DNA of 64,000 nucleotides, from assembly GCA_020619395.1 (NCBI GenBank), contig GCA_020619395.1_4860.1. One strand, given 5' to 3'. Source of the stretch: a phage. Numbering within the stretch: the first letter of the stretch is position 1; each line of letters begins with the position of its first letter. Below the pieces are notes generated by a model. That model ran no database searches, was not told where the DNA came from, and saw only the letters and a program-made list of their open reading frames with translations. Positions 36,035 through 52,480 of the stretch are shown here, one piece after another. A program made the translations under genes and the position numbers.

Positions 36035-38212
36035 TTACGATAACGGTATCGTTGGCCGCACCCACGGTTTAGGGGCAGATTTGGTATACGGATTACATTC
36101 CATCATTTTACCGAGATACGCATCGTAATACACGAAGCGATCGACATAGAACCTCTCCACCGGTGTACTACTGGTAGCCGATTTCACCCGGTTGCGTTCC
36201 ACAGCGAGGCCAATCACCCCGGTAGGCGCGGGTTTTAGGGTGAACATTACCGCACGGTTGTAACGCCAAGTGTCGTGCACAATATCAAACTCCGATACAC
36301 TGTGTGCCATGATACCAAACAATGTGGTGGCTGGTAAGTTGGCTACAGCATCGCCGTATGGTGTTCCCACCAAACCGCCGGGTATGTTTTGCTTTTTGAA
36401 CAGCGTACCTGAAATAATCGTACCTAAGAACTCCACAACTACAGGTTTGGTTGGGTCGGTGACTTTATCTATCCCATCCGCACTGGCCAATCGGTTGGCA
36501 TCTAAATCTGCGAGGTAGTCGAGGAACTCTTGGTACTCGTCGGTGACATTCGGTTTCACCGTTCCGACGGATACCCAGTTGACGATACTTTTATTCCCAC
36601 CGACGGCTTCGCCTGCCATCCCAGGGCGAGTCCATGACATCCCGTCTTCACGACCGTAGACATAGACCGGCGAGCCGGTAGCCGGGGTGTTCCATTGCTC
36701 GAACGCTGTATATCGTCCCGGCTGGCCCCAATCGCCACCAGGACCGCCATAGTAGCGACTCTGGTAGCCGGTAAATTGTGCGACGACTAACTGGGTAGCA
36801 CCGCCTTTGTCACGGGACCCAGCTAAGCCGTTACGGTTATTGGTGCCGCTGGGTACCGCCGCGCCTGGCCCGAGAGGCGCACCACCAGCTCCACCGATCT
36901 TGGTGGTGCTAAACGCATAGTAGTCGCCCCCACCCCCACCTCCGGCGATGGTGCCGTAGTTTTCGATGGTGACTTTGCCGCGGAAGGCATCGGTAATGTG
37001 GATTGCGTCAGCTCCGTCTGCTGATGTGTTCGCAGGCAGAGAATAGACCATACCCGAACCACCACGACCAAGAATGGTTCCCCGGTTAACGAAGTTCCAA
37101 ACCACCTCGCCAATTTGCGGCAATTCGTCGATAACGAACGTCGGTTTCAGGTTGCTGTCGCGATAAACGAAAGCCCCCGCATCTACGGTCACGTTAACAA
37201 ACAAACGCCCGCACGCCGCATGGTTGGTCAACGTCGTGGCCCAGTAGCTGTCCGAAACTTGCGACGTAGTTGTGTAGTTCAGGTTAAGGGTTTGCTCGTT
37301 ATCTTGATAGCGTGCCACATTCAACGTGGCACTGCCCATGACTTTGTACGAACCCTCCACAGGTGCCAATTGCACTTGTCTTGGCCACTCGCCTGCCAGG
37401 TCCTCTACGGGAGCAATTTCGTTTACATCAAAAACACTCCGAATGCCGAGTGTCTCGATGGCCAGAGCATCATGCAGGCTACCGGTGAAATCATCCGGGA
37501 CGTATGTGGTTTTGCCTGCATATGTCTCGAGTTTGTTACGTGAAAAGAACACATACTTCGTTCCAAACATCCCGCTCCCCGGTCTAGCGGTCAAAGCCAC
37601 GACGCTGTTATACGCAGAGGTTTGGCCTATATCCTCCGGGGACATCGGGGCGCTGACATCGACTTTATCAAGATCCACGATCCGTTTGGTTGCATTAGAG
37701 TAGAAGTTAATCCACTGCTGTTTATTCGCAGCCTTTAGCGTGAGAATGATGTTGGTAACAGTGTAGACGGTGTTGATATCCACGTCACCGTTTATCACAT
37801 CTAGCGTTTGGCTGCCGTACCAGACAAGACTTGTCTGTTTCGCCTGGAACGTGATGCGCGCAGCATTGTTTGTCCAAGTGATAGGCAGGTCTTCAAAGTC
37901 GTCGGTTAAAAAGGTAATCCCCAGTAAAGTGTCTAAATGCGGCAACAGTTCGTGAATGGATGCACAAGTGGGAATGGCATCCAACTTAACCTTAGCGAAA
38001 TAATCAGCAATATTTTGCTTCGTGACTTGGGCCGTAATTTGACCGTAATTTGAATACCCCGGACCCCCTGTCAGTGTGACGTCTAGGGTTTTTTCGTCAC
38101 GATGCGCCACGGACACCAGGCGTACGTTAGCGGGGTCTACTGCTTTGGCGACCGCGTTTTTACGGTTGAGCGACCGAATCACGGTCGCCACTAAATCGGG
38201 AGTGTAGGACAT
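36035..38212 (-). CDS. paralogue-family structural protein (725 aa), Gly-rich C-terminal half
   Basis: N-terminal domain weakly similar to array paralogues; GGGGGDYYAF..GGPGGDWGQPG region; C-terminal YTKSAPKPW motif shared with 439 aa neighbour. Confidence 0.6.
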   Translation of the reverse strand: MSYTPDLVATVIRSLNRKNAVAKAVDPANVRLVSVAHRDEKTLDVTLTGGPGYSNYGQITAQVTKQNIADYFAKVKLDAIPTCASIHELLPHLDTLLGITFLTDDFEDLPITWTNNAARITFQAKQTSLVWYGSQTLDVINGDVDINTVYTVTNIILTLKAANKQQWINFYSNATKRIVDLDKVDVSAPMSPEDIGQTSAYNSVVALTARPGSGMFGTKYVFFSRNKLETYAGKTTYVPDDFTGSLHDALAIETLGIRSVFDVNEIAPVEDLAGEWPRQVQLAPVEGSYKVMGSATLNVARYQDNEQTLNLNYTTTSQVSDSYWATTLTNHAACGRLFVNVTVDAGAFVYRDSNLKPTFVIDELPQIGEVVWNFVNRGTILGRGGSGMVYSLPANTSADGADAIHITDAFRGKVTIENYGTIAGGGGGGDYYAFSTTKIGGAGGAPLGPGAAVPSGTNNRNGLAGSRDKGGATQLVVAQFTGYQSRYYGGPGGDWGQPGRYTAFEQWNTPATGSPVYVYGREDGMSWTRPGMAGEAVGGNKSIVNWVSVGTVKPNVTDEYQEFLDYLADLDANRLASADGIDKVTDPTKPVVVEFLGTIISGTLFKKQNIPGGLVGTPYGDAVANLPATTLFGIMAHSVSEFDIVHDTWRYNRAVMFTLKPAPTGVIGLAVERNRVKSATSSTPVERFYVDRFVYYDAYLGKMMECNPYTKSAPKPWVRPTIPLS

Positions 38213-38226
38213 GGTGACACCTTAGT

Positions 38227-39546
38227 CTATAGCGGTGGATACCAAGGGACCGGGGCGGTTTTGCTATATGGACTGTAGACCATATAGCCGCCTTTGCTTG
38301 GGTCGTAATAGATGAAATAGTTACAGTAATTCGAGTAAATGCTCGTCATTTGTTTGGATTGGTATCCGTTACGGTATAGTCCCTGGTAAGTAATAGCTGA
38401 TGTCGTGGTGGTGTAAGCAGTGTGGTACAGTACCCGACGCCGGTTAGCAATACTTTCTTGGAACATTTCTTCGGTCGGAAACGCGTGTTGCATCAGCCGT
38501 CGAATACTCCCGGTACAGTATCGAGTGCCATACGGGGAACCCGTTAAATCATCCGCAGTTTCAGGCGATTCTGCCCGAGTCAACACGTACTCGTTTTGAT
38601 ACAACGTGACGCTCATCGAATTTGGGCTGGTTTCCCGGAAACTCATGTAACGCGCATAACGTTCGACGTCCTCTTCCTGCGCCAAATAGGCCACGTTATT
38701 TTTCGGACCAAAGTGCAAGAAGAACGGACGGCGGAGATTACCCATATCCTCAGGTGGCGTCAACTTCACGCAGTAATTGTACTCCCCACGCATATCAGGG
38801 TCTAAGCCTGGGTTGTTATTGCGTGTAGCGACATACCCATAGAGGTCATACGGGTTATCAGTAGCAGCATTACCGATAGTGAACGGGATGCCCGACCATG
38901 CCGACAGCGCCGCGATGAACTGGGTCATGTACGAGTTACTGTTTAGTCGCAGCGGGGTACCCATCGGGATATTGATTATCTGTTGGGTGTACATGCTCCA
39001 GTCGAGTCGATAGACCGTGCTGTAAACATCCATGGGTTCCCAAGCTCCGGTTTCGGTGGTGTGGTACAAGTCGGCAAAGCTGGGCTCTTCACGAATAAAG
39101 CTAATAGGAATGTGACCCGTGAATGCGGGGTTATCCGATTTAATCGCCACCGTCCGATCGCCCGTTGCCACAGTGATCATTGCAAACTGGCTGTCAGGAT
39201 ACGTTAAATCGTCAGCAGTAAGCACCAGCCCACAAGCTGCGGAAATCCGGTCGATGATGTCGCGGTAGGACGTCGCCCGATAAGGTACTTTAACCGGTAC
39301 GCTGACGCCTTTAAAATACTGCGAAAGGTTTAAGCGGTCGTAGTAGATGTCCATCTTACCGCTGTAACCGCCACCCTGTAATCCGTTTACCACTATACGG
39401 CTGTTGCGGCCATCGCGCAAGGCATTGGTTAAAGGACCTTGTAATAACGCCACGTTGGTTGCGTTGAGTGGTTTCTTGAGCTGCGGGTTATCACGATTAA
39501 TCTGATCCCAAACCAGCTGCATGACAGGTTTGTTATAGTTGATCAT
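38227..39546 (-). CDS. paralogue-family protein (439 aa)
   Basis: N-terminal ..INRDNP..RNS..IYYDRLNL domain; C-terminal YSKTAPVPWYPPL. Confidence 0.65.
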   Translation of the reverse strand: MINYNKPVMQLVWDQINRDNPQLKKPLNATNVALLQGPLTNALRDGRNSRIVVNGLQGGGYSGKMDIYYDRLNLSQYFKGVSVPVKVPYRATSYRDIIDRISAACGLVLTADDLTYPDSQFAMITVATGDRTVAIKSDNPAFTGHIPISFIREEPSFADLYHTTETGAWEPMDVYSTVYRLDWSMYTQQIINIPMGTPLRLNSNSYMTQFIAALSAWSGIPFTIGNAATDNPYDLYGYVATRNNNPGLDPDMRGEYNYCVKLTPPEDMGNLRRPFFLHFGPKNNVAYLAQEEDVERYARYMSFRETSPNSMSVTLYQNEYVLTRAESPETADDLTGSPYGTRYCTGSIRRLMQHAFPTEEMFQESIANRRRVLYHTAYTTTTSAITYQGLYRNGYQSKQMTSIYSNYCNYFIYYDPSKGGYMVYSPYSKTAPVPWYPPL

Positions 39547-39557: not shown

Positions 39558-39593
39558 AAAAAAAGAAAATAGGCCCTTCAGGGCCTATTTTTA
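39558..39593. terminator. bidirectional rho-independent terminator
   Basis: stem aggccc-ttca-gggcct flanked by A-run and T-run. Confidence 0.7.
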
Positions 39594-39724: not shown

Positions 39725-40627
39725 TTAGCTAAGAACCAGTTCGATAACGTGGACTACCGACGCGCTATTGGTCGAAGAGGTGTACGATGGTGTGTCTGGT
39801 GAGTTGCTGCGATAGTACCAGGGGGTGGCGTTGTCATAACCGTTGGCAAACAATGTTGCGCTTGAATCGGTTGGACTACCGCCGGAGCGCGCCGGTAAGT
39901 CGCCAAAACGTCTTACGACGCCCGCGTAGCGGAACAAGCTTGCGAACGTGTTGTGCCACTCGCCATCTTGAAAATAACCACCGCTGCTTAGGTAGGTGCT
40001 GTGCCCATAACTGTAGTCTCCGAGTCGAGGCAAACGTACCACATACTCGTAACCGTCTTTATTAAATGTCCGACGCTGGTTAGTGGTAGCGACGCCCCGT
40101 GGCGGGAAACCGTAGTCATCTGTTCCCCAGGCCAGACCTTGCTGGTATTGTTCGTTCCACGTCGTCCCTAAACGGGTCACCGTGTCAGGAATGAACAGAA
40201 TGCGTCCTTTGAAAACGAATTTATGGAACAATGTTGGAGCTTGGTTCCAGGCATTAAAGCCAATTAAACCATTCAGCTCGGCATGGTTAAGAATAAATTC
40301 TTCGTTTGTCAGTGTGCCAAAGTAGCCACGATGCCAATCGCCACGAATAAGTTCCTGTGGGCCGGGCCCTGTCATTGGAAAGTCGCCCTGTACAATCGGC
40401 AGCCCCATAACCTTTTCAGTGCCCTTTACCGCCACGATGCGATATTGATACGTTTTATACGCCTCGGTGGTCGTGTCCTCGTACGTCGTTGTGTTACCTG
40501 GTAGTGTTACAATAGGTTCCCCCGGTGCTACTGGGTTAACACTTTGTCTGGGGTTGTCGTAACGATAGATTTCAATGGAATCTAAAGTCTGACCTGGCTG
40601 TTGTTTCCAGTTTAAGATAATCGACAT
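39725..40627 (-). CDS. family-B paralogue 1 (300 aa)
   Basis: N-terminal Ig/FN3-like (..IEIYR..TY.Y.IVAVK) then TGPGPQ..GDWH.GYFG domain. Confidence 0.65.
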   Translation of the reverse strand: MSIILNWKQQPGQTLDSIEIYRYDNPRQSVNPVAPGEPIVTLPGNTTTYEDTTTEAYKTYQYRIVAVKGTEKVMGLPIVQGDFPMTGPGPQELIRGDWHRGYFGTLTNEEFILNHAELNGLIGFNAWNQAPTLFHKFVFKGRILFIPDTVTRLGTTWNEQYQQGLAWGTDDYGFPPRGVATTNQRRTFNKDGYEYVVRLPRLGDYSYGHSTYLSSGGYFQDGEWHNTFASLFRYAGVVRRFGDLPARSGGSPTDSSATLFANGYDNATPWYYRSNSPDTPSYTSSTNSASVVHVIELVLS

Positions 40628-40630
40628 GTT

Positions 40631-41629
40631 TTACTCCACTAACTCGATAACGAATGCGTACAAACCGACCTTCTCAGCACTGTCAATTAACGTAACTTGG
40701 GAGAGGTTACGTTTCGACGTATTGGTTATGCTTGAATCGATAGGCGCAGACCCGCGAACCAGAACTAATCCCGATTCAGGATCACGTTCTTGGCACAAGA
40801 AACCTTTGCCTTGGTAAGCGCTACCGCTCCCATAAATGGACGCTGGACTAATATTAGTCCAGTTAGGGAGCATTTGTTTGTTAGGGATACAATCTCCGAA
40901 CGGATAAACAAAATCGTTATATTCGCAGCGACCATATTCCAAGTCATCATGGTCTGCGTTTCGCAACGATTCATCCAATGTCATTACTGTCGGTTCGTCC
41001 CCGTCGGTTAAACCGCGCAGCAATCGCATCCGATAGGTGTCGCCTTGCCATTCAAACAACCCACTCTGGTCAACACCTGCCAAATCCCCACGTCCGTTAT
41101 CAGGACCAAATCCATCAACACCGTACACAAGCCCCGCGTTATAAATGTCATTCCACGAGTAAAGTGTAGAGTTAAATCGTCCGCCGCTGTTCATCATGTA
41201 GTAAACTTTACCATGTCGATAAAACTTGTTCATGATTAGCGTGCCCGTGCCCGATATCCCTGTTAATGCACGAAAGCCTGCAGGCAACGCGTCATAGGTC
41301 ATCTGTTCTTCGAACGGCAACTGCCCCAGAAACGCCAAGTCGTCAGTATCGGAATAGTTAATCTGGTCGACGCCACCCACACCACGACGGTTTTTAATGA
41401 CAATGGATTTTTGTGGACTACCTACGGTACGGCCGTTAACAGTTACTGTTAAAAGATACCAGTAACGGGTGTTAAGAATAACGGTTTCGTCCGTCCATTC
41501 CGTTTCGCCATTACTTAAAGTTGCAATAGGGGCTGGTAATGCGGCTGTATTTATTTTAGCCGTGCCCCGATAAATGTTAACAATTGAACCTGCCGGATTT
41601 TCATTTTTCCAGCGTAGTGTGAATGCCAT
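40631..41629 (-). CDS. family-C paralogue 1 (332 aa)
   Basis: MAFTLRWKN..VNIYRGT N-terminus; paralogous to 43996..44985 and 47441..48439. Confidence 0.65.
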   Translation of the reverse strand: MAFTLRWKNENPAGSIVNIYRGTAKINTAALPAPIATLSNGETEWTDETVILNTRYWYLLTVTVNGRTVGSPQKSIVIKNRRGVGGVDQINYSDTDDLAFLGQLPFEEQMTYDALPAGFRALTGISGTGTLIMNKFYRHGKVYYMMNSGGRFNSTLYSWNDIYNAGLVYGVDGFGPDNGRGDLAGVDQSGLFEWQGDTYRMRLLRGLTDGDEPTVMTLDESLRNADHDDLEYGRCEYNDFVYPFGDCIPNKQMLPNWTNISPASIYGSGSAYQGKGFLCQERDPESGLVLVRGSAPIDSSITNTSKRNLSQVTLIDSAEKVGLYAFVIELVE

Positions 41630-41639
41630 CTGTTACTCC

Positions 41640-43082
41640 TTAGAAGCCGTTCAACTCACCGTTCGCGGTTGCTAAATCTGTTTTAAGTGGAGGTTCTGCC
41701 TGAGTAGGCGGTAGTGGACGCGGTGCGTCGACGTGTGGTTCAAGTACAACCATCGGCCTAACTGTACCTACGCTGTTCGACACTGTCGATAACGGCAGCG
41801 CAGTATCGACGTTTGGTTCACCCACCACAATCGGGCTGATAGGTTCTTCCACCTGTTCCGCAGTTGTTGCTAGAGGTCTCGGCGCATCTGTTGTCGCAAC
41901 CTCGACTGCAAGAGGGCGAATGCTATCAGGTTGTGGTGATGGTACATTAGGAATAACCCTAACGCGCCACACAACATCCCCTTCCACATCAGCTAAAGAT
42001 AAGACGATGTCGTCCTTATTGATTTCCTCTAAAACAGGCCACCAGTAAGTGGTATCTGTAAGGGTTACCCATTCAACTGAGCCACCGCGCATATTGCAAC
42101 GTTGTACTTTAACAGGGTTACCCCCGGTTAACAGTTGTTGCGTGAAGAAGACGGTGGTTCTGGTTAACGTGGTGTCATTTGCCCAGTCGCCGCCCGTAGA
42201 ACCGTCACCGAGTTGTGAAATAAGCCACAACGGTGTGGCCTTTGATAAATCAGGGCTAACCGGAACGGAGACGCGGTAATAATGCGTCTTGTTATTCTCA
42301 GTTTTCGTGACAATCAAAGCCTGGTCAACAGGTTCGATACCGTCTGGATACGGACCAGTGTCACCTGTACCGAAAATGGCACCCGCTTGATAAAGGGCCG
42401 TCCAGGTTGCTGTTAACGTTCCGGTAGTCGGTAGATAAACAATCTTACCATCCTTGAAAAATTTCAACCATTCGAAAGTCATTTTCGTTGGGGCAACATC
42501 AGGACGAATTAGGTTGTTTAGTTCAGCAAAGGTAAATAACTCTTGCTGAGAAACGTGGCCGAAGTATCCGTTTGTGCTGTCCCCTGCCAACAAATATTTA
42601 TTGCCTGGCCCAGAATCTGGATAGTAGCCCACGGCTTCATTCAAATAATCGACCGGGATATAGCCGCGATAGCATACGCTATTATACGCGGTTAAATTAA
42701 TACGTGTTGGCGTTGCCAGCGATTTGATAGGCGCGTCTACCGACTGTACACTGCTATCAGATAACCAAACACCGTATAAATCGCGTAGAGCTGGGAGAAG
42801 ATCCCGCACGGTCTTGGCCGTTTGTGGTACGTAGACGCGCGGAGCTATTTTAAATAGATCTGATAATGTTAAACGGTCGTAATAAACCGTGCACTCCCCA
42901 GAGAAACCTTTACCGGGTTTACCTACCAACGTAATTACCGTGTTACGACCATTCTTAGTGGTCTCGGCAGGAATACCCCTCACCCCAATCGAATCAGCGC
43001 TGATTCTTCCTGCGAGTTCAGGGTTATCCCTTACGACTTGTTGGCAGAGCAATTCCAGTTCGGGTGCGCTATACAATCCCAT
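41640..43082 (-). CDS. family-A paralogue 1 (480 aa)
   Basis: N-domain (RDNP..RNT..VYYDRLTL), SGPG..GYFG..ELF domain, C-terminal NGELNGF; RBS aggag. Confidence 0.65.
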   Translation of the reverse strand: MGLYSAPELELLCQQVVRDNPELAGRISADSIGVRGIPAETTKNGRNTVITLVGKPGKGFSGECTVYYDRLTLSDLFKIAPRVYVPQTAKTVRDLLPALRDLYGVWLSDSSVQSVDAPIKSLATPTRINLTAYNSVCYRGYIPVDYLNEAVGYYPDSGPGNKYLLAGDSTNGYFGHVSQQELFTFAELNNLIRPDVAPTKMTFEWLKFFKDGKIVYLPTTGTLTATWTALYQAGAIFGTGDTGPYPDGIEPVDQALIVTKTENNKTHYYRVSVPVSPDLSKATPLWLISQLGDGSTGGDWANDTTLTRTTVFFTQQLLTGGNPVKVQRCNMRGGSVEWVTLTDTTYWWPVLEEINKDDIVLSLADVEGDVVWRVRVIPNVPSPQPDSIRPLAVEVATTDAPRPLATTAEQVEEPISPIVVGEPNVDTALPLSTVSNSVGTVRPMVVLEPHVDAPRPLPPTQAEPPLKTDLATANGELNGF

Positions 43083-43093
43083 GAAGTCTCCTG

Positions 43094-43993
43094 TTAAGGC
43101 AGAACGAGTTCAAGTACCGCAATGGAGCGTATTGTAGTGGTACCGTAGTTACTCCATGCCGGCGACTCAGGGTAAGGTGGACGGTTGTACCACTGACTGG
43201 ACGTGTTATTCATAGCCGCAAAGAATGCAGATTGTTGGGCAGTAACCGAATCGATTGAACCGACCGGAAGGTCGTCAAAGCGCGGAAACTGCCCACTGTA
43301 GTTGTACAGGCGCGCGAAGGTGTTAAACCACTCACCGTCGAGATACAACTCAGTGTTACCGCTTCCAACGTAAGACGTCCAGTATTTGTAGTCGAACAAA
43401 TACGGCAAGCGCACCACGTATTCGTAACCGTTCTTCGCCACCGTGCGGCGTTGGTTACGTGCAGTAGCCCAGCCCGGTACATATCCATTGCCATCCTGGC
43501 CGTACATCATCCCCTGGTTATAAATGAACTGCGGGCTAGCGTTTATTATCGAGTTATCGGACATAAACAGAATACGGTTTTTGTAAATGAATTTATGCCA
43601 GGCACCAACGGCGGAACTGAACATATTCACCACGAGGCCGTTCAGTTCCGTGTTAGTGAATAACTCTGCTGGCGTTACTGTTCCAAAGTATCCAGCGTGC
43701 CAGTCGCCGTATAACAGTTTCTGGGGGCCAGGCCCGGTGTCTAAAAAGAACCCTTGGGCGGTAGGGGTGTTGAAGACACGCTCACCGTCTTTAACCGCAG
43801 CTATCCAATAACGGTAAGTGGTGTTGTTTTCCACAGCGTTGTCTTCGTACGATGTAGCGTCACCCGGAAGGGTTGCCAGAGGCGTTCCCGGTGCATTAAC
43901 ATCAATTGTGGCGTTGCCCGGCGTCTTGCGATAGATTTCGATGTTATCGAGCGCCTGTGGCTTCCGTTGTGCAAAGTGTAATGTAATAGGCAT
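43094..43993 (-). CDS. family-B paralogue 2 (~300 aa)
   Basis: ORF runs to 44029; ATG at 43993 (MPITLHFAQ..) has RBS gagga and abuts upstream stop. Confidence 0.65.
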   Translation of the reverse strand: MPITLHFAQRKPQALDNIEIYRKTPGNATIDVNAPGTPLATLPGDATSYEDNAVENNTTYRYWIAAVKDGERVFNTPTAQGFFLDTGPGPQKLLYGDWHAGYFGTVTPAELFTNTELNGLVVNMFSSAVGAWHKFIYKNRILFMSDNSIINASPQFIYNQGMMYGQDGNGYVPGWATARNQRRTVAKNGYEYVVRLPYLFDYKYWTSYVGSGNTELYLDGEWFNTFARLYNYSGQFPRFDDLPVGSIDSVTAQQSAFFAAMNNTSSQWYNRPPYPESPAWSNYGTTTIRSIAVLELVLP

Positions 43994-43995
43994 GA

Positions 43996-44985
43996 TTAAT
44001 CCTCGATAAGCTCGATTACTGGAATCCAAATACCGCCCACGGTCGCACCAGGGACATGTTGTATACGCTGGAGGTTATCCACGGTATCAGTGGAATCCGC
44101 CGCCGCCAATCCGCGCGTCAGCCCCAACTTACGTTCTGGGTCAAACTCCTGACAATGCGCCCCACGGCCTGCCACCAGCGATCCATTTCCGAATATGCTG
44201 GAGTTCGACCACTTTATCAGGGACATCACTTTTTTCTTTTCTGGGAACCAGCTACTTATCCCATAGATGAGTCGGTTGTATTCGCTATCGGCAGTATACG
44301 GTGACGCGTCATGGAGTTTACCGTCCCACTGTGCATCGAGTGTCATGACCGGGCTTTCACTGTCGAGTGTTAAACCGCGCAGCAGGCGCATCCGATAGCG
44401 GTCACCCAACCACGTAAACTCCCCAGCCTGGTCAACGTCAGGTAAATCGCCATGACCGCCTTCCGGACCAGGTCCCGCCACACCGTACAGCAAACCCGCG
44501 TTATAAATCGCATCACGGCTATACAGCGTGTTGCCGTTCACACGAAGACCACTAAACAGATACAGAATTTTACCGTCTAGCTGGAACTTCATCAAGCCCG
44601 GCTTAACAGTTGGGTCGTATCCAGAAAGGGCCACAAACCCTGGCGGATAATCACCCGCGCTAGGTAATTCACCGTACGCCACGTACCCGTAATACGCAAA
44701 GCGGTCATCACCGTACTGTGGAGCCACGATGCCGATACCGCGACGGTTCTGAATTAGAATTGATTTCTGCGGACTGAACAGTGTCCGACTTCCCACTGTC
44801 ACGGTGGTCATGTAGTAATACGTTGTCCCCAGTATCGCTGTTCGGTCAGTATACTCAGTTTCCCCGTTAGTGAACGTTGCCAGGGGTTCAGGTAATGCCG
44901 TACGCACCAGAGGTTTGGTGTCGCGGTACAGCTTCACGGTCGAAGCCCCAGGGTTATTGTTCGTCCAACGAATTGTAAAAGCCAT
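43996..44985 (-). CDS. family-C paralogue 2 (329 aa)
   Basis: MAFTIRWTN..VKLYRDT; AGPGPEGGHGDLP motif. Confidence 0.65.
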   Translation of the reverse strand: MAFTIRWTNNNPGASTVKLYRDTKPLVRTALPEPLATFTNGETEYTDRTAILGTTYYYMTTVTVGSRTLFSPQKSILIQNRRGIGIVAPQYGDDRFAYYGYVAYGELPSAGDYPPGFVALSGYDPTVKPGLMKFQLDGKILYLFSGLRVNGNTLYSRDAIYNAGLLYGVAGPGPEGGHGDLPDVDQAGEFTWLGDRYRMRLLRGLTLDSESPVMTLDAQWDGKLHDASPYTADSEYNRLIYGISSWFPEKKKVMSLIKWSNSSIFGNGSLVAGRGAHCQEFDPERKLGLTRGLAAADSTDTVDNLQRIQHVPGATVGGIWIPVIELIED

Positions 44986-44997
44986 TGTCGTTACCTC

Positions 44998-46494
44998 TTA
45001 TTGGAATCCATCCAACTCACCGTTAGTATCGCCCAGAGTAATTTTTGAAGGTTGGGCGATTTGGTCAGTCGTGAGAATAATCGGTCTAATCTTAACGCTA
45101 GCCATGCCTGTTACCGCGACGGAATATGCACGTTCATCATTGTCCGTCGTGGCAAGCAGAGGACGTGGTGAGTCTGATGACGCTTCCCGCAGCCAGGCAG
45201 GGGTGGCAGTTTCGGTGTTGTCGGTGTTGAAAACTAACGGACGTGGATTCGCTGCGGCGGAGGTTTCCGTAATAGGCACCACACGAAGCGATTCATTTTG
45301 GTCGATGTCCGTCAGAGTAACCACGGACGGTGCCCATGTTAGCTCTGCACCTTCGTCAATCAACGGCACAGGTTCATTGGCAACATCAAACATCTCCAGG
45401 ATTGGCCAAAAGCCAGAAGAGGTGTAGATGTAGGTGTTTGAACGATAGCTCGCGCTGATAGACTGGTAATACGCTTGGTCGGCACCGAACTGGTGTCGTA
45501 ACCACACGTAATCCAGGAAGTTAGCATCAGTCGTGCTAAGAGTTCCCCACTCCCCATATACGTTCACCGACCCCAATTTGCTGGTCAGTGACAGGATAGA
45601 GGTGATTGACGGCGGTTTACTCCAATCAGGCGCGGCGGCGTTCTCGGTGTAATACGGGATAGACATTCTGAAATAATGCGTTCCTTCATCATCCCGTTTT
45701 ACCATGTATTTCAACTGTTCAACATCGACAGGTGTGTAAGTCGACTTCGGGCGAGGTCCTGCGTCTCCGGAATCAAATATTGCACCCTTGTTGTACAGGT
45801 CTGCCCAGGTAACGTTGCAAATCGCACGGGTCGGAACAAACACTACCGCCCCATTCAGAAAGAATTTGAGCCACTTGATAGCGTAGCGGTTAGGCCAGTT
45901 GGTGCCGTTATAAAGGGCATACACCATTTCATCAGATGTGAATAACTCTTCCGCGCTTACCAGCCCAAAGAATCCGTATAACTCATTACCAGCCATTAAT
46001 CCTTTTGGCCCAGGACCCGACTTCGGATACATCGCAATCGGTTCGTAAACATAGGTCATCTTGCATGACCCGGTATAGCACAAGGAGTTAGCGTGCGCCG
46101 TCAGAGTTACAGTTTCCGGCGTAGCGTATTTCATTAATGCAACGTTTGGACTGGTGATATCACTCGCGGTTAAGTTCAACCCGTTCAATTCATTGAACGC
46201 CGGTAACGCTTCCGCATGGGTTTGTGCGCTACGTGGAATACTCACCATATTCGGGCCAGACTTAAATAGACTGGCCAGATTCAACCGGTCGTAATATACC
46301 GTTATTTCCCCAGCAAATCCTTTACCGGGTTTTCCTACCAACGTAATCTGAGTGTTTCGTCCGTTAACGTTTTTCGCAACAGGAACACCCCTGACCCCAA
46401 TGGAGTCAGGGGTGATTTTTCCTGCTAAACCGGGATTGTCACGCACAATTTGTTGGCAGAGCAGTTCCATTGAAGGTTCTGTATACAACCCCAT
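44998..46494 (-). CDS. family-A paralogue 2 (498 aa)
   Basis: MGLYTEPSMELLCQQIVRDNP..; C-terminal TNGELDGFQ. Confidence 0.65.
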   Translation of the reverse strand: MGLYTEPSMELLCQQIVRDNPGLAGKITPDSIGVRGVPVAKNVNGRNTQITLVGKPGKGFAGEITVYYDRLNLASLFKSGPNMVSIPRSAQTHAEALPAFNELNGLNLTASDITSPNVALMKYATPETVTLTAHANSLCYTGSCKMTYVYEPIAMYPKSGPGPKGLMAGNELYGFFGLVSAEELFTSDEMVYALYNGTNWPNRYAIKWLKFFLNGAVVFVPTRAICNVTWADLYNKGAIFDSGDAGPRPKSTYTPVDVEQLKYMVKRDDEGTHYFRMSIPYYTENAAAPDWSKPPSITSILSLTSKLGSVNVYGEWGTLSTTDANFLDYVWLRHQFGADQAYYQSISASYRSNTYIYTSSGFWPILEMFDVANEPVPLIDEGAELTWAPSVVTLTDIDQNESLRVVPITETSAAANPRPLVFNTDNTETATPAWLREASSDSPRPLLATTDNDERAYSVAVTGMASVKIRPIILTTDQIAQPSKITLGDTNGELDGFQ

Positions 46495-46507
46495 GGTATT
46501 TACTCCA

Positions 46508-47431
46508 TTACGGTAAGACTAATTCAAAAGCAAAGAATATCGTGGCCGAGTTCCCGACACCTGCGGTGTTACTAATCCCCATAGGCACGGTGCCATACGC
46601 ATAAGCGAATATGTTGTTGCTCCACAAAGGAGCTAATACAGCGGCACCTGACTCATTCGGCTGCGCAGTCGCGCCTTGTCTTTCAAGTGAGTCAATCGCA
46701 CCAAGACCGAGGGCTGCGTACTGTGCACCGACAGGATACAAACGGCCCATTGTGTTTCGCCATTCACCGTTGTTGTAATCCTGTCCTGAGAGTGCCGCGT
46801 CGTACGGGACTGCGTAAGGTAATCGGATACGGTACGTACGACCATCCTTCGTGACCTTACAATCTTGTTTAGTCGCCGTGGCTCCCTGCGGAACAATACT
46901 TCCGACATCATCGGTCCCGTACATCATGCCGTACTGATACGCCATTTGTACCGAGTTGCTTTTCGAATGCATCGTCGCTGGGAAGAAGACAATTCGCCCA
47001 CGGAAAATAAACTTGTGCCATTCCTGAGGGTCGTAAGTAAACATGTTTCCCTGCTGCGCGGTTAACATGAGTTTTAACTCGGCAGTATTAAAGAACTCGG
47101 TATTAGATACCGTACCGAAATAGCCTGACGCCCAATCGCCACGCAAAATAGTTTGTGGCCCCGGTCCAGTGTCCGGATAGAACCCTTGCGTAATCGGATT
47201 GCCGATAAGTCGTTCACTATCTTTCACAGCAGCTACCCAGTAACGATAAGTTGTATTCTTCGTCAGGGTATCGATATTATCTACGAACTCTACCGCGCTA
47301 CCGGATAAGGTGGCGTGGGGTGTACCTGGGTTGTAAACGTCGATTGTTGCGTTCCATCCTTCCTTGCGGTAGATTTCAATCGCGGTAAGACCTTTGCTGG
47401 CTTGGGACGGCCAGCTTAACCGTATAGTCAT
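46508..47431 (-). CDS. family-B paralogue 3 (307 aa)
   Basis: MTIRLSWP..IEIYRK..DTGPGPQT..GDWASGYFG. Confidence 0.65.
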   Translation of the reverse strand: MTIRLSWPSQASKGLTAIEIYRKEGWNATIDVYNPGTPHATLSGSAVEFVDNIDTLTKNTTYRYWVAAVKDSERLIGNPITQGFYPDTGPGPQTILRGDWASGYFGTVSNTEFFNTAELKLMLTAQQGNMFTYDPQEWHKFIFRGRIVFFPATMHSKSNSVQMAYQYGMMYGTDDVGSIVPQGATATKQDCKVTKDGRTYRIRLPYAVPYDAALSGQDYNNGEWRNTMGRLYPVGAQYAALGLGAIDSLERQGATAQPNESGAAVLAPLWSNNIFAYAYGTVPMGISNTAGVGNSATIFFAFELVLP

Positions 47432-47440
47432 GACTGCCCC

Positions 47441-48439
47441 TTACTCGACCAGTTCAAAGATAGGGTAGTAGCGCCCTTTCGTGGTGGGTGATAAATAGTT
47501 TATACGCTGAATCGTGGATACGGGTGTTCCACCGGCATTGTTAAAAATACCACGATGGAGCACACGGTCTTCCGCGGTATCGTGTTCCATACAGAGAACA
47601 CCACCGCCGAAATACTGTGCCAAGGTTCCCAAAGTACCTTGCCCCAGATAAGTATAACCGATTGTTGCCCAGTTAGCCCAACGCTGTTTCTTCGGCACCT
47701 CGTTAACCATCGTGTAAAGTAAATCGTTATACTCACACGGGTTGGTTAGAGAAGCGATTTCATCATGGGTTTTCCCATTATAGTCAGCTACGAAAGGATA
47801 CGCAGGAGGCTCGCTAGACATCGTCAGGCCGCGAGGAAGACGCATGATGTACGTATCCCCTTTGTGGACTATCTTAGCGTCTTGTGGAGTGGCCGGTAGC
47901 GTTCCATGGCCGTTCTCTGGACCAGCATCGCCCGTACCATAGACTAAACCAGCTTGATAGAGGGAAGCCCAGTCCACAGGCGTATTCGGGAACTGCGACG
48001 TGCTAGATAGCATGTAATAGATCTTCCCGTTTCGGGTAAATTTATACAACGCCACACGATCGGTTAGTAGGTTAGGGAACATCGCCAAAAATGCAGGTGG
48101 CATTTGCGACGGAAGCCACTGTTCGTCGTAAGGAACCGCACCCATAAACCCTAAACGGTCGTCACCGTTTAGAATAGTCATTGGACCGATCCCACGCTTT
48201 ATCTCAATGGTGTATTTCTGGCTAGACGATGCCACTGTTTTACCGTTGGCGGTTACCGTCAGAAGGTAATAATAGGTTGCGCCTGGTGTGGCGGTGGTAT
48301 CACGCCATTCTGTCTCGCCATTTGAGAGCGTTGCAATCGGTTCAGGCAAAGCGCTTGGTGTGATATCTTTAACATCACGGTAGATTTTTACTACCGTAGG
48401 GATTACGTTTGGATTTTTCCAACGCAAAGTAAAAGACAT
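47441..48439 (-). CDS. family-C paralogue 3 (332 aa)
   Basis: MSFTLRWKN..VKIYRDV. Confidence 0.65.
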   Translation of the reverse strand: MSFTLRWKNPNVIPTVVKIYRDVKDITPSALPEPIATLSNGETEWRDTTATPGATYYYLLTVTANGKTVASSSQKYTIEIKRGIGPMTILNGDDRLGFMGAVPYDEQWLPSQMPPAFLAMFPNLLTDRVALYKFTRNGKIYYMLSSTSQFPNTPVDWASLYQAGLVYGTGDAGPENGHGTLPATPQDAKIVHKGDTYIMRLPRGLTMSSEPPAYPFVADYNGKTHDEIASLTNPCEYNDLLYTMVNEVPKKQRWANWATIGYTYLGQGTLGTLAQYFGGGVLCMEHDTAEDRVLHRGIFNNAGGTPVSTIQRINYLSPTTKGRYYPIFELVE

Positions 48440-48450
48440 AGATGATACCT

Positions 48451-49863
48451 CTACTTAAAGCCGTCCAGTTCACCGTTAAGAGACGTTAACGTTGTCTTGT
48501 CAGGGGGCGTATACATTTCAGCGGTAGCCGCAATAGGTTGGAAGTCGACTGTCTTCGGCAGCATTAAAGCAGGCGGATGCAGTGCGAAACTGTTTTCTGA
48601 AGTAACAACTACCGGTTCGAAATCGGTAGTATCCGGATTACCGAGCACTAACGGCTTGAGACTAAATGTGTTTTCTGCGGACACGCTGCACGGTTGGAGA
48701 CTGTAATCTGCCGTACCGTGGATATCTTCTAAACCCAAGGTAACTGTGGACTTATCCACCAACTCCAGCACCGGGAACCAGTAGTAGTTGCCCGCACTCG
48801 ATGATTTTTCTAAGTTTGTCCAACTTGCTCCAGACAACGTCGCCATGCGATGATTGGCGACGTTGGTCTTCAGTGTATCTTTCAATAAACAGAACAGCGT
48901 CCAGTAACTGTTAATCGGTTTGTCCCACGTTCCATTATACAGAAAGTTGAACATCTCAAACTCACTACCTGCTAACTCAGCGGCAGTTGGGGTGCCGCTG
49001 ACGTATGGGTCTTTCCCGGCACTAGGTAGACGAACGCGGAAGTAAAACCTTTTGTTGTCTGCGCCTGTAAAGCTAATGATGCGTCCCTGGTTAACGGGCG
49101 TCGCCGCAGGGTATTTACCATTATCGTCTGTTCCGTAAACGAGTCCGTTTGTATATAACGTATTCCAGGAGATGGAGCTAGCGACAGGACTGATCGGAAG
49201 GTAAATAACCCTACCCTGGTAAAAGAACTTGTACCAACCTTCGGCACCAGAATGTACCGGTGGTAACGCACCGGCCGATATAGTGGCATTAAGAAGTTGA
49301 GAGTGTGTAAACAACTCTGCAGTTCTGGTTGTTCCGAAATAACCCGCGATAGTGTTACCTTGCAGCAACGTTTTAGGGCCAGGTCCAGAATCGGGGTAAA
49401 TTGCACCACTCGGGACGGTATAACGTATCGTTAAGCTGCCTGTAAACGCAGGGCAATTGCCTGAGATATTTAATTTCAACGTCTGCGGCGAAACGCTCGG
49501 TTTAGGTAAACTTGCGTCAGGTGACTGCAAATCAGAAGCAACTAATGTAAGCCCCAATGCGTCGTTTATTGCAGGTAGCGCGTCTCGTACCGTTAAGACT
49601 GTATCTTTGATAGCCACAGTCGGCACAAAATTAAATAAAGTGGCCAGGTTAATCCGGTCGTAGTACACGGTAACATTACCTTGTACACCTGTCCCTGGAT
49701 ACCCGGTGAAAACAGCTTTGGTGTTACGTTGGTTTAACGTAACTGAAGTTGGGCCACTGGTTAAAGCAGCGATAGCCGGCGTCAGCTTAACAACTAAATC
49801 AGGGTTATCCCGATTGACTTGGTCGTATACAAGCAGTGCCGACTCCTTCGAGTAAAATAGCAT
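48451..49863 (-). CDS. family-A paralogue 3 (470 aa)
   Basis: MLFYSKESALLVYDQVNRDNP..; C-terminal LNGELDGFK. Confidence 0.65.
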   Translation of the reverse strand: MLFYSKESALLVYDQVNRDNPDLVVKLTPAIAALTSGPTSVTLNQRNTKAVFTGYPGTGVQGNVTVYYDRINLATLFNFVPTVAIKDTVLTVRDALPAINDALGLTLVASDLQSPDASLPKPSVSPQTLKLNISGNCPAFTGSLTIRYTVPSGAIYPDSGPGPKTLLQGNTIAGYFGTTRTAELFTHSQLLNATISAGALPPVHSGAEGWYKFFYQGRVIYLPISPVASSISWNTLYTNGLVYGTDDNGKYPAATPVNQGRIISFTGADNKRFYFRVRLPSAGKDPYVSGTPTAAELAGSEFEMFNFLYNGTWDKPINSYWTLFCLLKDTLKTNVANHRMATLSGASWTNLEKSSSAGNYYWFPVLELVDKSTVTLGLEDIHGTADYSLQPCSVSAENTFSLKPLVLGNPDTTDFEPVVVTSENSFALHPPALMLPKTVDFQPIAATAEMYTPPDKTTLTSLNGELDGFK

Positions 49864-49880
49864 AGGGACTCCGCATCGCC

Positions 49881-49907
49881 AAAAGAGGGGGGCTCCGAAG
49901 AGCCCCT
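49881..49907 (-). terminator. hairpin, weak terminator
   Basis: stem ggggctc-cgaa-gagcccc; only a short T-run on minus strand. Confidence 0.4.
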
Positions 49908-49911
49908 ACAC

Positions 49912-50742
49912 TTAGCTGTTATAGTGGTAGTACGCCACGCCTTTCACGCCTTCCTCATCGATACCCGTTTGGATAACCACGCGGTCGTACGATTTGTTAG
50001 CGAACTGAGCGGTGGATGTCGGCACATCCTGAACGGTGTTACTGTTCAGTGGCCCCGCGTAGTTCGGAATACCCAGGTCATCCAACACCTTACGCAAACC
50101 AGCCCACTGCGGTAGGCCAGAAGCATCTACTGTCAGTAGGTTTTTATACGCGGTAAAGTCAATACCGTACGTCAACAAATCAATACACTTCTTACCGAGA
50201 GACGGTGAAATAGGCTCTTGAATCGCATTCAAGACATCTGATTTCACCGAAGTGTCTAGTACCGGTAAACCACGGTTATAACGCAACGTCGCAGAACCGA
50301 TATAAGCCGGAGATGTCGATAGCGCTGCAATGGTCTGTGTATTGGTGTAATTTGGGGTATTGGCACCAAACAGTGAGTAGTTTTGGATATCGATTGCGGA
50401 GAAGTTTACTCCGTAAGTATCCAAGAGCACCGAAAAGGCTGAGTGGAGGTTGGGCGCGTCAAACGTGACGAACTGCGCCTGGACAGAAGGACCCCACGGC
50501 AATAACCGCGCTAAGTTCACACGGTCGTAGTAAACGGTGATTGCGTCTCGAAATCCGGAACCCTGAATACCGCGCAAGCGTGCCGACGTATTGCGGTTGT
50601 TGGAAGCTGCATTAACGGGAACCTGCGTCACTTTCTCCACGTAGCAGTTTGCCGGCGACGCTTTAATAGGTAGGTTTGGGTTATCCCGGTTAATGAGGTC
50701 AAAGACCAACTCGTTTGACGGCTTAGCATAGTTGATCATCAA
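49912..50742 (-). CDS. family-D paralogue 1 (276 aa)
   Basis: N-domain MMINYAKPSNELVFDLINRDNP..VYYDRVNL; C-terminal YYHYNS. Confidence 0.65.
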   Translation of the reverse strand: MMINYAKPSNELVFDLINRDNPNLPIKASPANCYVEKVTQVPVNAASNNRNTSARLRGIQGSGFRDAITVYYDRVNLARLLPWGPSVQAQFVTFDAPNLHSAFSVLLDTYGVNFSAIDIQNYSLFGANTPNYTNTQTIAALSTSPAYIGSATLRYNRGLPVLDTSVKSDVLNAIQEPISPSLGKKCIDLLTYGIDFTAYKNLLTVDASGLPQWAGLRKVLDDLGIPNYAGPLNSNTVQDVPTSTAQFANKSYDRVVIQTGIDEEGVKGVAYYHYNS

Positions 50743-51630: not shown

Positions 51631-51640
51631 TCGCTAATTC

Positions 51641-52480
51641 CTAGTTGTTGTAGTGCAACATACACTCGCCGATTACTTTCGGGTCGTTCTGAATGCCGGT
51701 AATCAGCAATACGTTATCGTACGCTTTATTGGCGGTCGCCAACTCACTCGTTTTGTAGCGGGTAATTGTGCAGTTCGTCGGATCAAACGACGGTACCCCA
51801 CGTGCGACCAATGTGGCCATCAGATTGGACGTGTAACCCAAATCAAAGTTACTTCCTACGTCCATTCGCCCGTTCTTAAACGAGGCCATAACCTGCACTT
51901 CATCAGTAAAGTCTTCCCCGTACGTCAAGAAGCCCATGTATTTCTTACCAGTGCTTGCTGCTGCAGGGTGGTTCAAAGCCGACAAGATGTCGTTTACCAC
52001 GAGGTCTTCGAGACTATTCTTACCCCGGATAGACATAAAGGTGATGCTGCCAGTGTATTGGATACAGCTAGCGTTAATGCGCATCGTGTTGTTTACGTTC
52101 AGATAAACGTATTGTTCTGGGATATCGTCTGCAACCAGGTTTAATCCATAACGACCGTTCAGGTTCTGCGCAAACGCAGTACGTTTCGACTCCACGTTCA
52201 ACCAACCGTAGGCATTCGGTGCAGTTACCTGAGGTGTCATGTTCTTAAATAAGTCGTTCAGCGACAAGCGCTTATAACGGAACGTCTGAGGACCGATATA
52301 GCCACGACCTTGACGACCACGAATGATAATCTCAGTATTGGCACCGCTTGCTGTCGGTGTGATTGCTTTCGGCGTACCGATGATAGCATTGTCTAAACCC
52401 ATCGGTAGAACAGCATCCGGGTTTTCGGCATTAATCGCATCGTACAGATATTGTCGCTGAGACAGACTATATAAAGCCAT
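51641..52480 (-). CDS. family-D paralogue 3 (~279 aa)
   Basis: ATG at 52480 (MALYSLSQ..) with RBS gaggagg; C-terminal MLHYNN. Confidence 0.65.
   Translation of the reverse strand: MALYSLSQRQYLYDAINAENPDAVLPMGLDNAIIGTPKAITPTASGANTEIIIRGRQGRGYIGPQTFRYKRLSLNDLFKNMTPQVTAPNAYGWLNVESKRTAFAQNLNGRYGLNLVADDIPEQYVYLNVNNTMRINASCIQYTGSITFMSIRGKNSLEDLVVNDILSALNHPAAASTGKKYMGFLTYGEDFTDEVQVMASFKNGRMDVGSNFDLGYTSNLMATLVARGVPSFDPTNCTITRYKTSELATANKAYDNVLLITGIQNDPKVIGECMLHYNN

Follow-up and report, generated by a model that had tools for sequence, protein, structure and literature searches.

The stretch of phage DNA examined here, referred to as the window, comprises 64,000 nucleotides (nt) of contig GCA_020619395.1_4860.1. 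Its positions 36035–39546 carry two adjacent genes encoding proteins of 439 and 725 amino acids (aa) (Table 1). At the DNA level this segment is 97.6–99.6% identical to 20 listed Seoulvirus genomes, and by sequence the source is identified as an SPN3US-like Seoulvirus jumbo phage, the Seoulvirus group being nucleus-forming, SPN3US-like jumbo phages that infect Salmonella and Escherichia coli. The two proteins are direct orthologues of SPN3US gp154 (439 aa) and gp155 (725 aa), with Seoulvirus copies sharing 97–99% of their DNA sequence. These gene numbers were obtained by counting from gp168 (5.2 kb) of the SPN3US papers, and the SPN3US supplementary mass-spectrometry tables list products of 50 kDa and 78.3 kDa under exactly these numbers. 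The same two-gene arrangement and domain order are found in Cronobacter phage CR5 (CR5_143/144) and Erwinia phage Phobos (gp144/145). Existing records label the orthologues only as “hypothetical” or “virion structural protein,” and one record carries an automatic “Gp38” label.

The pair closes, on the downstream side, a long array of paralogous genes on the minus strand (39725–55989), and 14 nt separate the 439-aa gene from the 725-aa gene. Terminator-like hairpins, each followed by a run of T residues, lie in the gap upstream of the first gene and just downstream of the second, the upstream one setting the pair apart from the remainder of the array. Adjacency of the two genes is retained in CR5, in Phobos, and in a metagenomic contig (L010), where the pair occupies a different position in the array. 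Given the hairpins on either side and this conserved adjacency, the two genes look like one unit.

Shared Termini and Domain Architecture

An earlier note on this DNA had described the two proteins as larger paralogues that share a C-terminal Y(S/T)K(T/S)APxPW motif. The shared ending is confirmed, as the expression Y[ST]K[ST]AP.PW occurs exactly twice in a six-frame translation of the window, once at each of the two C termini. BLASTP aligns the last 109 residues of the proteins with 27% identity (E = 6e-8), and the profile phrog_6409 (171 positions, unknown function) matches both aa 312–436 of the 439-aa protein (E 1.7e-18) and aa 557–719 of the 725-aa protein (E 2.3e-7). A hidden Markov model (HMM) built from 40 family members likewise has two matches in the window and no more (E 1e-36 and 2e-33), a result that is partly circular in that both sequences contribute to the model. 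Sequence comparison hence confirms a likeness between the two C termini far beyond that expected by chance. The term “paralogues” applies well to both ends of the proteins, namely an N-terminal DUF7941 domain and the C-terminal domain described below, and does not extend to their middle regions.

Alignments made with MAFFT, using orthologues and stand-alone homologues, place the shared ending within a domain of ~150 residues that we call C-dom. This domain is marked by the ordered motifs G-[ST]-P-[YW]-G, Q-H-A-x-P, R-N-G-Y-x-S, F-[IV]-Y-Y-D, and N-P-x(4)-[ST]-x-P-x-[WFY]. The Y(S/T)K(T/S)APxPW sequence is its last conserved element, and lies 0–3 residues from the free C terminus in most family members. 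All of the motifs are present in the 439-aa protein. The 725-aa protein retains G-T-P-Y-G, the H, R-N..S, Y-Y-D, and N-P..A-P..W, with AHSVSE and RNRVKS as diverged forms. Among the 40 aligned sequences, one Gly, His, Asn, and Asp and the Pro preceding the motif Tyr are invariant, while Arg, Ser, and Tyr residues are nearly so on an otherwise variable scaffold. The Pro of “AP” is kept in at least 90% of these sequences, and the residue two positions on is usually aromatic (W, F, or Y). Similarly, P426, W435, and P437 are invariant across 11 orthologues of the 439-aa protein. The C termini of the two proteins are unlike those of the other array classes, which end ..NGELDGF, ..ELVE/ELVLP, or ..LHYN, as the earlier note had stated.

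AlphaFold2 (AF2) models of the two C-doms present the same order of secondary structure elements, with a helix, short strands, two helices, and long beta-hairpins. For the 725-aa protein, the predicted local distance difference test score (pLDDT) is ~81–92 over most of aa 557–720, with a dip at aa 597–609. No family in Pfam matches C-dom, nor does any PDB entry by sequence or profile. Foldseek likewise gives nothing significant in the PDB, the matches being Nudix-like at E > 0.2 with a root-mean-square deviation of ~12 Å, and in BFVD it yields matches only to uncharacterised jumbo-phage proteins. A BFVD model of the Deimos-Minion homologue superposes on the C-dom model of the 439-aa protein with a target-normalised TM-score of 0.74. 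A weak HMM match between the “RN..YYD” region and a 276-aa array member (E 0.025) raised the possibility that C-dom is a diverged copy of the DUF7941 N-terminal domain, an origin that we rejected on an hhalign probability of 0.2%.

At their other ends, both proteins carry a domain of DUF7941, a family reported to be chimallivirus-specific in a preprint on phage Goslar (10.64898/2026.04.21.720040). The match of phrog_1037 to aa 1–287 of the 439-aa protein runs from profile position 3 to 289 of 290 and thus represents a complete DUF7941 unit. The corresponding AF2 model (mean pLDDT 75.5) runs from an N-terminal alpha/beta domain through a linker of low confidence and a further globular domain to C-dom, so that the protein has the full-length layout of the Goslar gp22 type (N-terminal domain, linker, second globular domain). 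The 725-aa protein matches only DUF7941 profile positions 12–166 and a second short stretch; because the match is partial, we assign this protein to the type in which an N-terminal module is joined to other domains. When the model of the 439-aa protein was compared with the PDB by using Foldseek, a single significant match was obtained, to 9xqd_0 (E 9.6e-5, probability 1.00, TMt 0.58), and the model of the 725-aa protein matches the same chain with a probability of 0.99. This chain comprises 150 residues of the outer peripheral baseplate of phage phiKZ and is phiKZ gp127 according to the preprint (10.64898/2026.04.21.720040).

The fold match agrees with the baseplate model of the Goslar preprint, wherein the N-terminal domain of phiKZ gp127 is modelled on the outermost baseplate with gp126 fitted beside it (10.64898/2026.04.21.720040). 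The same work reports that purified Goslar gp22 self-assembled into long filaments, as seen by negative-stain electron microscopy, and that AlphaFold predicts a head-to-tail arrangement, each subunit docking through its linker and C-terminal domain on the N-terminal domain of the one that follows (10.64898/2026.04.21.720040). An N-terminal globular domain of this fold is shared by the pair in the window, Goslar gp22/gp23 and gp86/gp92/gp161, and phiKZ gp126/gp127. In Goslar gp86, gp92, and gp161, the N-terminal DUF7941 domain is followed by C-terminal carbohydrate-binding, glycoside hydrolase, or LRR/beta-helix domains (LRR, leucine-rich repeat; 10.64898/2026.04.21.720040), an order of N-terminal module and host-recognition domains like that seen in the window. 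However, the payloads in the window (C-dom and a Gp38-type module) are outside the domain types listed in the preprint.

Location of DUF7941 genes within an array of paralogues is common to the pair and the chimallivirus family. PF25613 is also detected in proteins of 470–498, 265–303, and 175 aa encoded in the window, and this N-terminal domain, common to all, supports the proposal in the earlier note that the pair belongs to the same apparatus as the neighbouring array. The array itself, on the minus strand, is highly regular, with three consecutive triplets, each encoding a 470–498-aa DUF7941 protein ending ..NGELDGF, a 329–332-aa protein ending ..ELVE/ELIED, and a 300–311-aa protein ending ..ELVLP/S. 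The 300- and 332-aa proteins match phrog_1062 and not the Pfam DUF7941 family. Across the triplets from the pair are seven tandem DUF7941 proteins of 265–303 aa, five of which end ..LHYN/LHFN and a sixth ..LHYLPI. Finally, a 175-aa protein (32616–33143, minus strand) consists of the DUF7941 N-terminal domain and a tail, ..TTNGELDGFV, and is the orthologue of SPN3US gp160, which is listed as highly abundant in the SPN3US paper. It is similar to the abundant gp23 type of Goslar, made up of N-terminal domain and linker alone; a tblastn search that used it to look for Goslar gp23 gave no match from Goslar.

The 725-aa protein is organised as the DUF7941 N-terminal domain, a beta-rich middle region, a glycine-rich module related to Gp38, and C-dom. 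No homologue of the beta-rich region was detected outside the orthologues, and its predicted fold has no significant match in the PDB. The long Gly-rich segment to which the earlier note drew attention is real and specific: besides its match to the Pfam GP38 family, it matches phrog_2056 (“tail fiber protein; host specificity”) with an E value of 2.7e-19. A phmmer search recovers 6f45_D (S16 gp38) and 9v85_A (PP01 gp38), with successive glycine-rich motifs in register. Thus, the GRGGxG, GGGGGG, GGxGGxPxGxG, and GGxGGxxGxPG motifs of T-even (Straboviridae) Gp38 proteins from phages S16 (6F45), PP01 (9V85), and T2 align with this module. Foldseek also returns 9v85_C (PP01 gp38) with a probability of 0.99 over 125 columns, probably via a better-modelled flank of the module. 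The AF2 model of this protein was calculated from full-length orthologues and C-dom fragments only, because a mixed global alignment of both paralogue families misaligned the N-terminal domains.

Two distinctions from T-even Gp38 are evident. The N-terminal portion of Gp38 that binds the tip of the gp37 fibre has no counterpart in the window, where profile positions 1–60 are unmatched, and T-even Gp38 is a free protein of ~250 aa, whereas the module described here is internal to a larger protein, between the DUF7941 domain with its beta-rich spacer and C-dom. We therefore refer to a Gp38-like module rather than to a Gp38 orthologue. One relative (P0005, from a contig found in 4 samples) lacks precisely the segment of about aa 241–555, corresponding to the spacer and the Gp38-like module, and its N-terminal region is joined directly to C-dom. 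Therefore, the adhesin module behaves as an insertable cassette.

Table 1. Features of the two-gene locus and its flanks (positions in the 64,000-nt window)
Feature	Position	Strand	Details
Terminator-like hairpin and T-run, downstream of 725-aa gene	35967..35988	minus	9-pair stem, 6 GC pairs, then CTTTCTTTTT
TAA stop, in-frame relic FNEELDGFKA, TGA stop	36002..36037	minus	relic 36002–36034
725-aa gene	36035..38212	minus	orthologue of SPN3US gp155 (ACQ60_gp111); ends ..NPYTKSAPKPWVRPTIPLS
C-dom of 725-aa protein	36038..36553	minus	aa 554–725; GTPYG, AHSVSE, RNRVKS, FVYYD, NPYTKSAPKPWVRP
Motif YTKSAPKPW	36062..36088	minus	aa 709–717 of 725-aa protein
Gp38-type glycine-rich module	36554..37096	minus	aa 373–553 of 725-aa protein; PF05268, 66 bits (cut-off 25), E 5.7e-18, profile 61–214 of 218
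Beta-rich middle and second short DUF7941-like stretch	37097..37747	minus	aa 156–372 of 725-aa protein; AF2 pLDDT 70–91 over aa 180–380
DUF7941 N-terminal domain, 725-aa protein	37748..38212	minus	aa 1–155; PF25613, 82.3 bits (cut-off 27), aa 11–154
439-aa gene	38227..39546	minus	orthologue of SPN3US gp154 (ACQ60_gp112); region 98–99.6% identical to Seoulvirus genomes; ends ..SPYSKTAPVPWYPPL
C-dom of 439-aa protein	38230..38679	minus	aa 290–439; GSPYG, QHAFP, RNGYQS, FIYYD, SPYSKTAPVPWYPPL; AF2 pLDDT ~63–90
Motif YSKTAPVPW	38242..38268	minus	aa 427–435 of 439-aa protein
Linker and second DUF7941 globular domain, 439-aa protein	38680..39081	minus	linker aa 156–175, AF2 pLDDT <50; globular domain to ~aa 289, pLDDT 75–86
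DUF7941 N-terminal domain, 439-aa protein	39082..39546	minus	aa 1–155; PF25613, 93.9 bits (cut-off 27); AF2 pLDDT ~75–88
Terminator-like hairpin and T-run, upstream of 439-aa gene	39566..39591	minus	11-pair stem, then CTTTTTTT

Distribution and Variation of C-dom

A word-indexed protein search with C-dom alone returned no match, and homologues were found instead by tblastn against phages and by an exhaustive HMM search. The tblastn search locates C-dom in CR5 and Phobos as the same pair of fused genes, and as stand-alone proteins of 160–171 aa in RAY-like Erwinia phages, Serratia phage PCH45, Erwinia phages PhiEaH1 and Kaldavass, and Burkholderia phage SURPRISE13. A profile search of 1.84 billion cluster representatives (50% identity) yielded 486 matches at E ≤ 1e-3, including 206 at E ≤ 1e-10. 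Single-domain proteins of no more than 200 aa (median 167 aa) account for 109 of the best 145 new matches. C-dom ends 0–3 residues from the C terminus in 87 of these 109, and 48 begin with M-[LFIV]-[EDPQ] as part of a short peptide, MLExLL or MLPFP.

Other arrangements among the matches include tandem C-dom doublets (P0036, P0041, P0042, and P0046); one protein composed of DUF7941, a Gp38-like module, a further domain, and a C-terminal C-dom (P0044); and large fibre-like proteins with a different N-terminal region and C-dom at the C terminus (P0065 and P0081). In three of the best 145 new matches the domain is internal. One 1360-aa protein with 13 matched stretches (P0124) proved to be a false positive, owing to Ig-like repeats with VVWYDAATGG. 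All 40 aligned C-dom members match phrog_6409, and the stand-alone proteins of that family (~167 aa; RAY gp283 and gp282, and the 160-aa protein of PCH45) have the same domain, motifs, and C-terminal ending as the C-doms in the window. The difference is that C-dom in the window is fused to the end of a fibre protein, whereas the stand-alone forms carry a short N-terminal peptide instead.

The stand-alone genes occur in distinctive company. Seven consecutive genes of Kaldavass (L006, PQ464595.1; 600–7928) start with the same peptide of ~12 residues, MLPFP(I/Q/R)..YG, and have different C-terminal domains. Besides the C-dom protein, they encode four proteins annotated as RCC1 and two others of about 205–212 aa, and the peptide looks like an attachment sequence shared by interchangeable payloads. 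An endolysin of SURPRISE13 is flanked by the C-dom protein and two small F5/8-type-C (discoidin, galactose-binding-like) proteins, all three of which have an N-terminal peptide of the form xLExMLL. A Gly_rich_2 (PF21722) protein is encoded directly upstream of the two tandem C-dom genes of RAY, though this protein (gp284) has no BLASTP similarity to the Gp38-like region, such that the link exists only at the level of “glycine-rich domain.” An unannotated C-dom open reading frame (ORF) of PhiEaH1 (L007, NC_023610.1; 3641–4315, plus strand; HMM E 5e-54) adjoins genes for a 727-aa protein and a large “tail fiber protein.” From the gene neighbourhoods in Kaldavass, SURPRISE13, and RAY, we infer that stand-alone C-dom proteins may belong to a class of small payload proteins that combine a shared N-terminal attachment peptide with varied binding domains. 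We also considered whether C-dom always occurs in pairs. This holds for Seoulvirus, CR5, Phobos, the RAY-like phages, and the fused doublets, but a single copy is present in the ~10 kb examined of PCH45, Kaldavass, PhiEaH1, and SURPRISE13.

Codon-wise comparison of seven Seoulvirus genomes indicates that changes are distributed unevenly along the 439-aa gene. Relative to SPLA5c, codons 1–289 differ by 1 nonsynonymous (Nd) and 13 synonymous (Sd) changes, whereas C-dom differs by Nd = 17.5 and Sd = 7.5 (Fisher p = 1.4e-4, with counts rounded to 18 and 7). Synonymous divergence (dS) is alike in the two parts, at 0.070 and 0.079, respectively. Within Seoulvirus, omega ranges from 0.28 to 0.80 in C-dom versus 0 to 0.14 in codons 1–289, and the variable positions cluster at aa 287–342 and 382–403 while avoiding the conserved motifs. 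Judged by these comparisons, C-dom is the fast-evolving part of the 439-aa protein. A metagenomic relative (P0014) is 98.7% and 98.5% identical to the window protein in the first two domains and 38% identical in C-dom, which reads as a clean cassette replacement at the domain border.

The pattern is weaker in the 725-aa gene, where C-dom makes up 24% of the length and accounts for 12 of 31 variable positions. One genome encodes both a large protein whose C-dom is 78% identical to that in the window and a small protein whose C-dom is 35% identical (P0003 and P0017). Therefore, the two C-doms do not co-vary.

A Relic Tail and the Surroundings of the Pair

The TAA stop codon of the 725-aa gene is followed in frame by a short coding remnant and a TGA stop (Table 1). 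Several relatives read through the position of this stop, ending ..PLSQYNGELDGFKARG (P0002), ..ELSTFNGELDGFDTR (P0005), ..EANGELAGFKS (Phobos gp145), and ..QDTLDGFKK (CR5_144). Thus, CR5 and Phobos keep a ..(N/D)(G/T)(E/L)L(A/D)GF tail that Seoulvirus has lost, and the remnant together with the read-through relatives indicates that the Seoulvirus lineage lost a tail of 11–13 residues by a nonsense change. The TAA codon and the relic are present in all seven Seoulvirus genomes checked, each with NGEL altered to NEEL, and the relic F is changed to V in SPN3US and Proteus phage 7. We consider it unlikely that the TAA is subject to programmed read-through into the relic, given these changes at conserved positions. 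In enterobacteria, a U directly after UAA makes for a strong stop signal.

The ..NGELDGF ending is found on the 175-, 470-, 480-, and 498-aa DUF7941 proteins of the window, and a related sequence, TNTELSGL, follows the N-terminal domain of a 265-aa array member. Because the Goslar preprint places the contact between subunits in the linker that follows the N-terminal domain, we suspect that this tail is a peptide that docks onto the next subunit. If so, the 725-aa protein, which lacks the tail in Seoulvirus, would be a chain terminator.

Several features of the surrounding DNA are worth recording. The ORF for an endolysin (GH108 and PG_binding_3; 35339–35992, minus strand) has a mechanically assigned start 36 nt upstream of that annotated in SPN3US (618 nt), and the additional codons overlap the terminator-like hairpin downstream of the pair. 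Translation probably begins instead at the ATG near 35956. Just beyond the pair and the endolysin gene, on their downstream side (33884–35050, minus strand), are genes for a DUF1353 protein (phrog_1158, “tail assembly chaperone”) and for a 171-aa protein with a weak Peptidase_M15-like match; the latter is orthologous to SPN3US gp158, a protein that tailless particles lack. The plus strand at 28213–32534 encodes a 295-aa ORF, two radical-SAM-annotated genes (29087–30037 and 30030–31358), a 204-aa ORF, and a DUF4376-annotated protein (31863–32534). This set of genes sits between giant baseplate or fibre candidate genes (12717–25852) and the fibre array, an unusual neighbourhood for radical SAM enzymes.

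Some database records of the pair also have peculiarities. In Escherichia phage vB_EcoM_Lh1B (L014, OK428535.1), N bases occur just downstream of the 725-aa gene (~255–310), and a TGA located three codons ahead of the usual stop results in an annotated product of 722 aa; both may reflect a problem of sequence quality. For SPFM-series Seoulvirus records (e.g. LR535901, LR535903–LR535908, LR535911–LR535913, and LR535917), tblastn matches to both proteins are split into 2–6 pieces, and the deposited proteins (P0006–P0011 and P0021–P0026) align poorly. The broken matches and poorly aligning proteins suggest assembly errors of the frameshift type.

Roles of the Pair in the Virion

Both SPN3US orthologues have been detected in virions by mass spectrometry, with similar low abundances of 0.90 for gp154 and 0.70 for gp155 (PMC5105663, PMC5694885). 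The SPN3US papers place gp154 in “paralog family B.” Given the architecture and variation described above, it is reasonable to propose that the pair forms distal, host-contacting end-units of a filament system rather than its proximal anchors. We assign this reading of function and location a probability of roughly 0.55, and the domain architecture and homology are much more certain. In this proposal, both products would be filament subunits of the virion whose DUF7941 N-terminal domains join a filament or baseplate network, leaving the C-terminal ends free, exposed, and bearing the working parts. The C terminus is predicted to be the free end because it is the N-terminal domain that is shared with the baseplate-bound phiKZ chain. 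The 725-aa protein would then present the Gp38-like module and C-dom, with the former being the likeliest binder of a cell-surface receptor, while the 439-aa protein would present a variable and exchangeable C-dom. Without the ..NGELDGF tail, the Seoulvirus 725-aa protein would also end the chain.

The authors of the Goslar study proposed a “fibre cloud” for host recognition (10.64898/2026.04.21.720040), and SPN3US has been reported to use flagella as its receptor (PMC11428620). We speculate that long, flexible filaments with terminal binding modules might suit a first contact with flagella or the cell surface, and that the Gp38-like module might suit an envelope receptor. With regard to C-dom, we infer that it is a surface-exposed module for host interaction or capping that is mounted on a conserved scaffold and exchangeable between phages. 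A broader and more tentative suggestion is that C-dom represents an unrecognised family of plug-in payloads for binding or modifying the host surface. Its members might be fused to filament subunits or, as stand-alone proteins of ~167 aa, dock by way of MLExLL or MLPFP peptides alongside lectin-like, RCC1-like, and glycine-rich modules. Under this scheme, swapping of alleles might retarget the phage, ..NGELDGF might serve as the docking peptide, and its loss might create a chain terminator.

Several points weigh against the end-unit proposal. In phages of Salmonella, Erwinia, Serratia, and Burkholderia alike, C-dom keeps the same core motifs (G-[ST]-P, Q-H, R-N-G-Y-x-S, Y-Y-D, and N-P). Such conservation is unusual for a receptor-binding surface and would also fit interaction with a conserved phage partner or a catalytic site. 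In more distant relatives, all domains of the 725-aa protein diverge together, and its C-dom does not clearly exceed the others in variability. The Gly-rich region is poorly predicted, with AF2 pLDDT values of ~22–28 over aa 424–557 from only 7 family sequences. Moreover, the orientation with the N terminus proximal and the C terminus distal derives from AlphaFold models that the preprint fitted into phiKZ density. Lastly, a gp64 amber mutant makes DNA-filled particles without tails, and these contain gp154, gp155, and the whole paralogue family; the proteins were classed as belonging to the head (PMC5105663, PMC5694885), which conflicts with a baseplate-anchored fibre.

This proteomic result is the basis for a first alternative, wherein the capsid or neck, and not the baseplate, is what the pair and the entire DUF7941 array decorate or project from. 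The listing as “Head” proteins favours this possibility, but filaments of the kind that purified Goslar gp22 forms by self-assembly could co-purify with any particle, and a Gp38-type adhesin module would be pointless at a location internal to the head. By conjecture, heads might carry the filaments along during purification, or the filaments might be attached close to the neck. On balance we regard a head location as rather unlikely. This alternative concerns location only, and would fit host recognition if filaments sit on the head or neck.

A second alternative retains the suggestion made in the earlier note that the two proteins are proximal or anchoring members of the apparatus. In this case, C-dom would be a conserved docking or dimerisation module that fixes the array to the virion or joins the 439-aa protein to the 725-aa protein. 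Its core motifs are strongly conserved over distant phages, as such a role would predict. Exactly two copies exist per Seoulvirus window, in adjacent, co-oriented genes between terminator-like hairpins; RAY-like phages have two tandem stand-alone copies, and fused doublets occur; and the abundances of gp154 and gp155 are similar. However, several observations point the other way. The part of each protein that matches the baseplate-bound chain is the N-terminal domain, at the end opposite C-dom, and the 725-aa protein carries a T-even Gp38-type receptor-adhesin module. C-dom of the 439-aa protein is fast-evolving and swapped as a cassette, and did not co-vary with its partner in the genome where the latter remains ~78% identical (P0017 vs. 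P0003). Some phages have a single copy in the region examined. Stand-alone copies are found among genes for lectin-like and other host-recognition proteins, and share N-terminal peptides with lectin-like and RCC1 proteins, which have the look of payloads and not of anchors. An anchoring or adaptor role is consequently judged unlikely.

Phage fibres often bear depolymerase or esterase modules, and C-dom might accordingly be a small enzyme, such as an esterase or a hydrolase that modifies glycans, with a surface polymer as substrate and the His, Ser, and Asp residues of the Q-H, RNGYxS, and YYD motifs as active site. In 40 diverse members, H, N, D, and G are invariant and R, S, and Y nearly so on a variable scaffold, which is what such a function might produce. 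However, no match to any enzyme is found in Pfam or in the PDB by sequence or fold, the orthologue CR5_144 lacks both His and Ser and is retained nonetheless, and the domain is small, with ~120 core residues. Thus, enzymatic function appears improbable. The least likely idea, which we essentially dismiss, is that C-dom is an intramolecular chaperone that folds the fibre and is then cleaved, as in some tailspike and fibre C-terminal domains: its strictly C-terminal position and a stand-alone size close to that of tail-fibre assembly proteins would fit, but there is no match to peptidase S74 or another chaperone family, and gp155 (78.3 kDa) and gp154 (50 kDa) were recovered from gel slices 8 and 5, where other full-length proteins of the same mass are found, which argues against cleavage of C-dom and the resulting loss of ~17–19 kDa.

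Some of these elements are already known, namely the genes, their virion association, the DUF7941 family (from the preprint), and one automatic “Gp38” label. In the literature on SPN3US with gp38 or adhesin, and on DUF7941, we found no account of C-dom as a distinct, widespread, and exchangeable domain that connects the pair with a large family of stand-alone proteins in jumbo phages, of a Gp38-like cassette inside a DUF7941 subunit, or of the relic of a putative docking tail.

Little is understood of how nucleus-forming jumbo phages (Chimalliviridae) locate their hosts. The locus adds two testable payloads in the genetically tractable phage SPN3US, a Gp38-type module grafted on a filament subunit and an exchangeable C-dom, the latter being widespread among jumbo phages with about 500 clusters at 50% identity. 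It also sharpens the conflict between SPN3US proteomics, which points to the head, and structural work on relatives, which points to the baseplate. Should C-dom have no part in setting host range, the findings would amount simply to a better annotation of two known virion proteins. If C-dom does set host range, however, it would offer a handle for engineering jumbo phages now under trial against Salmonella and E. coli.

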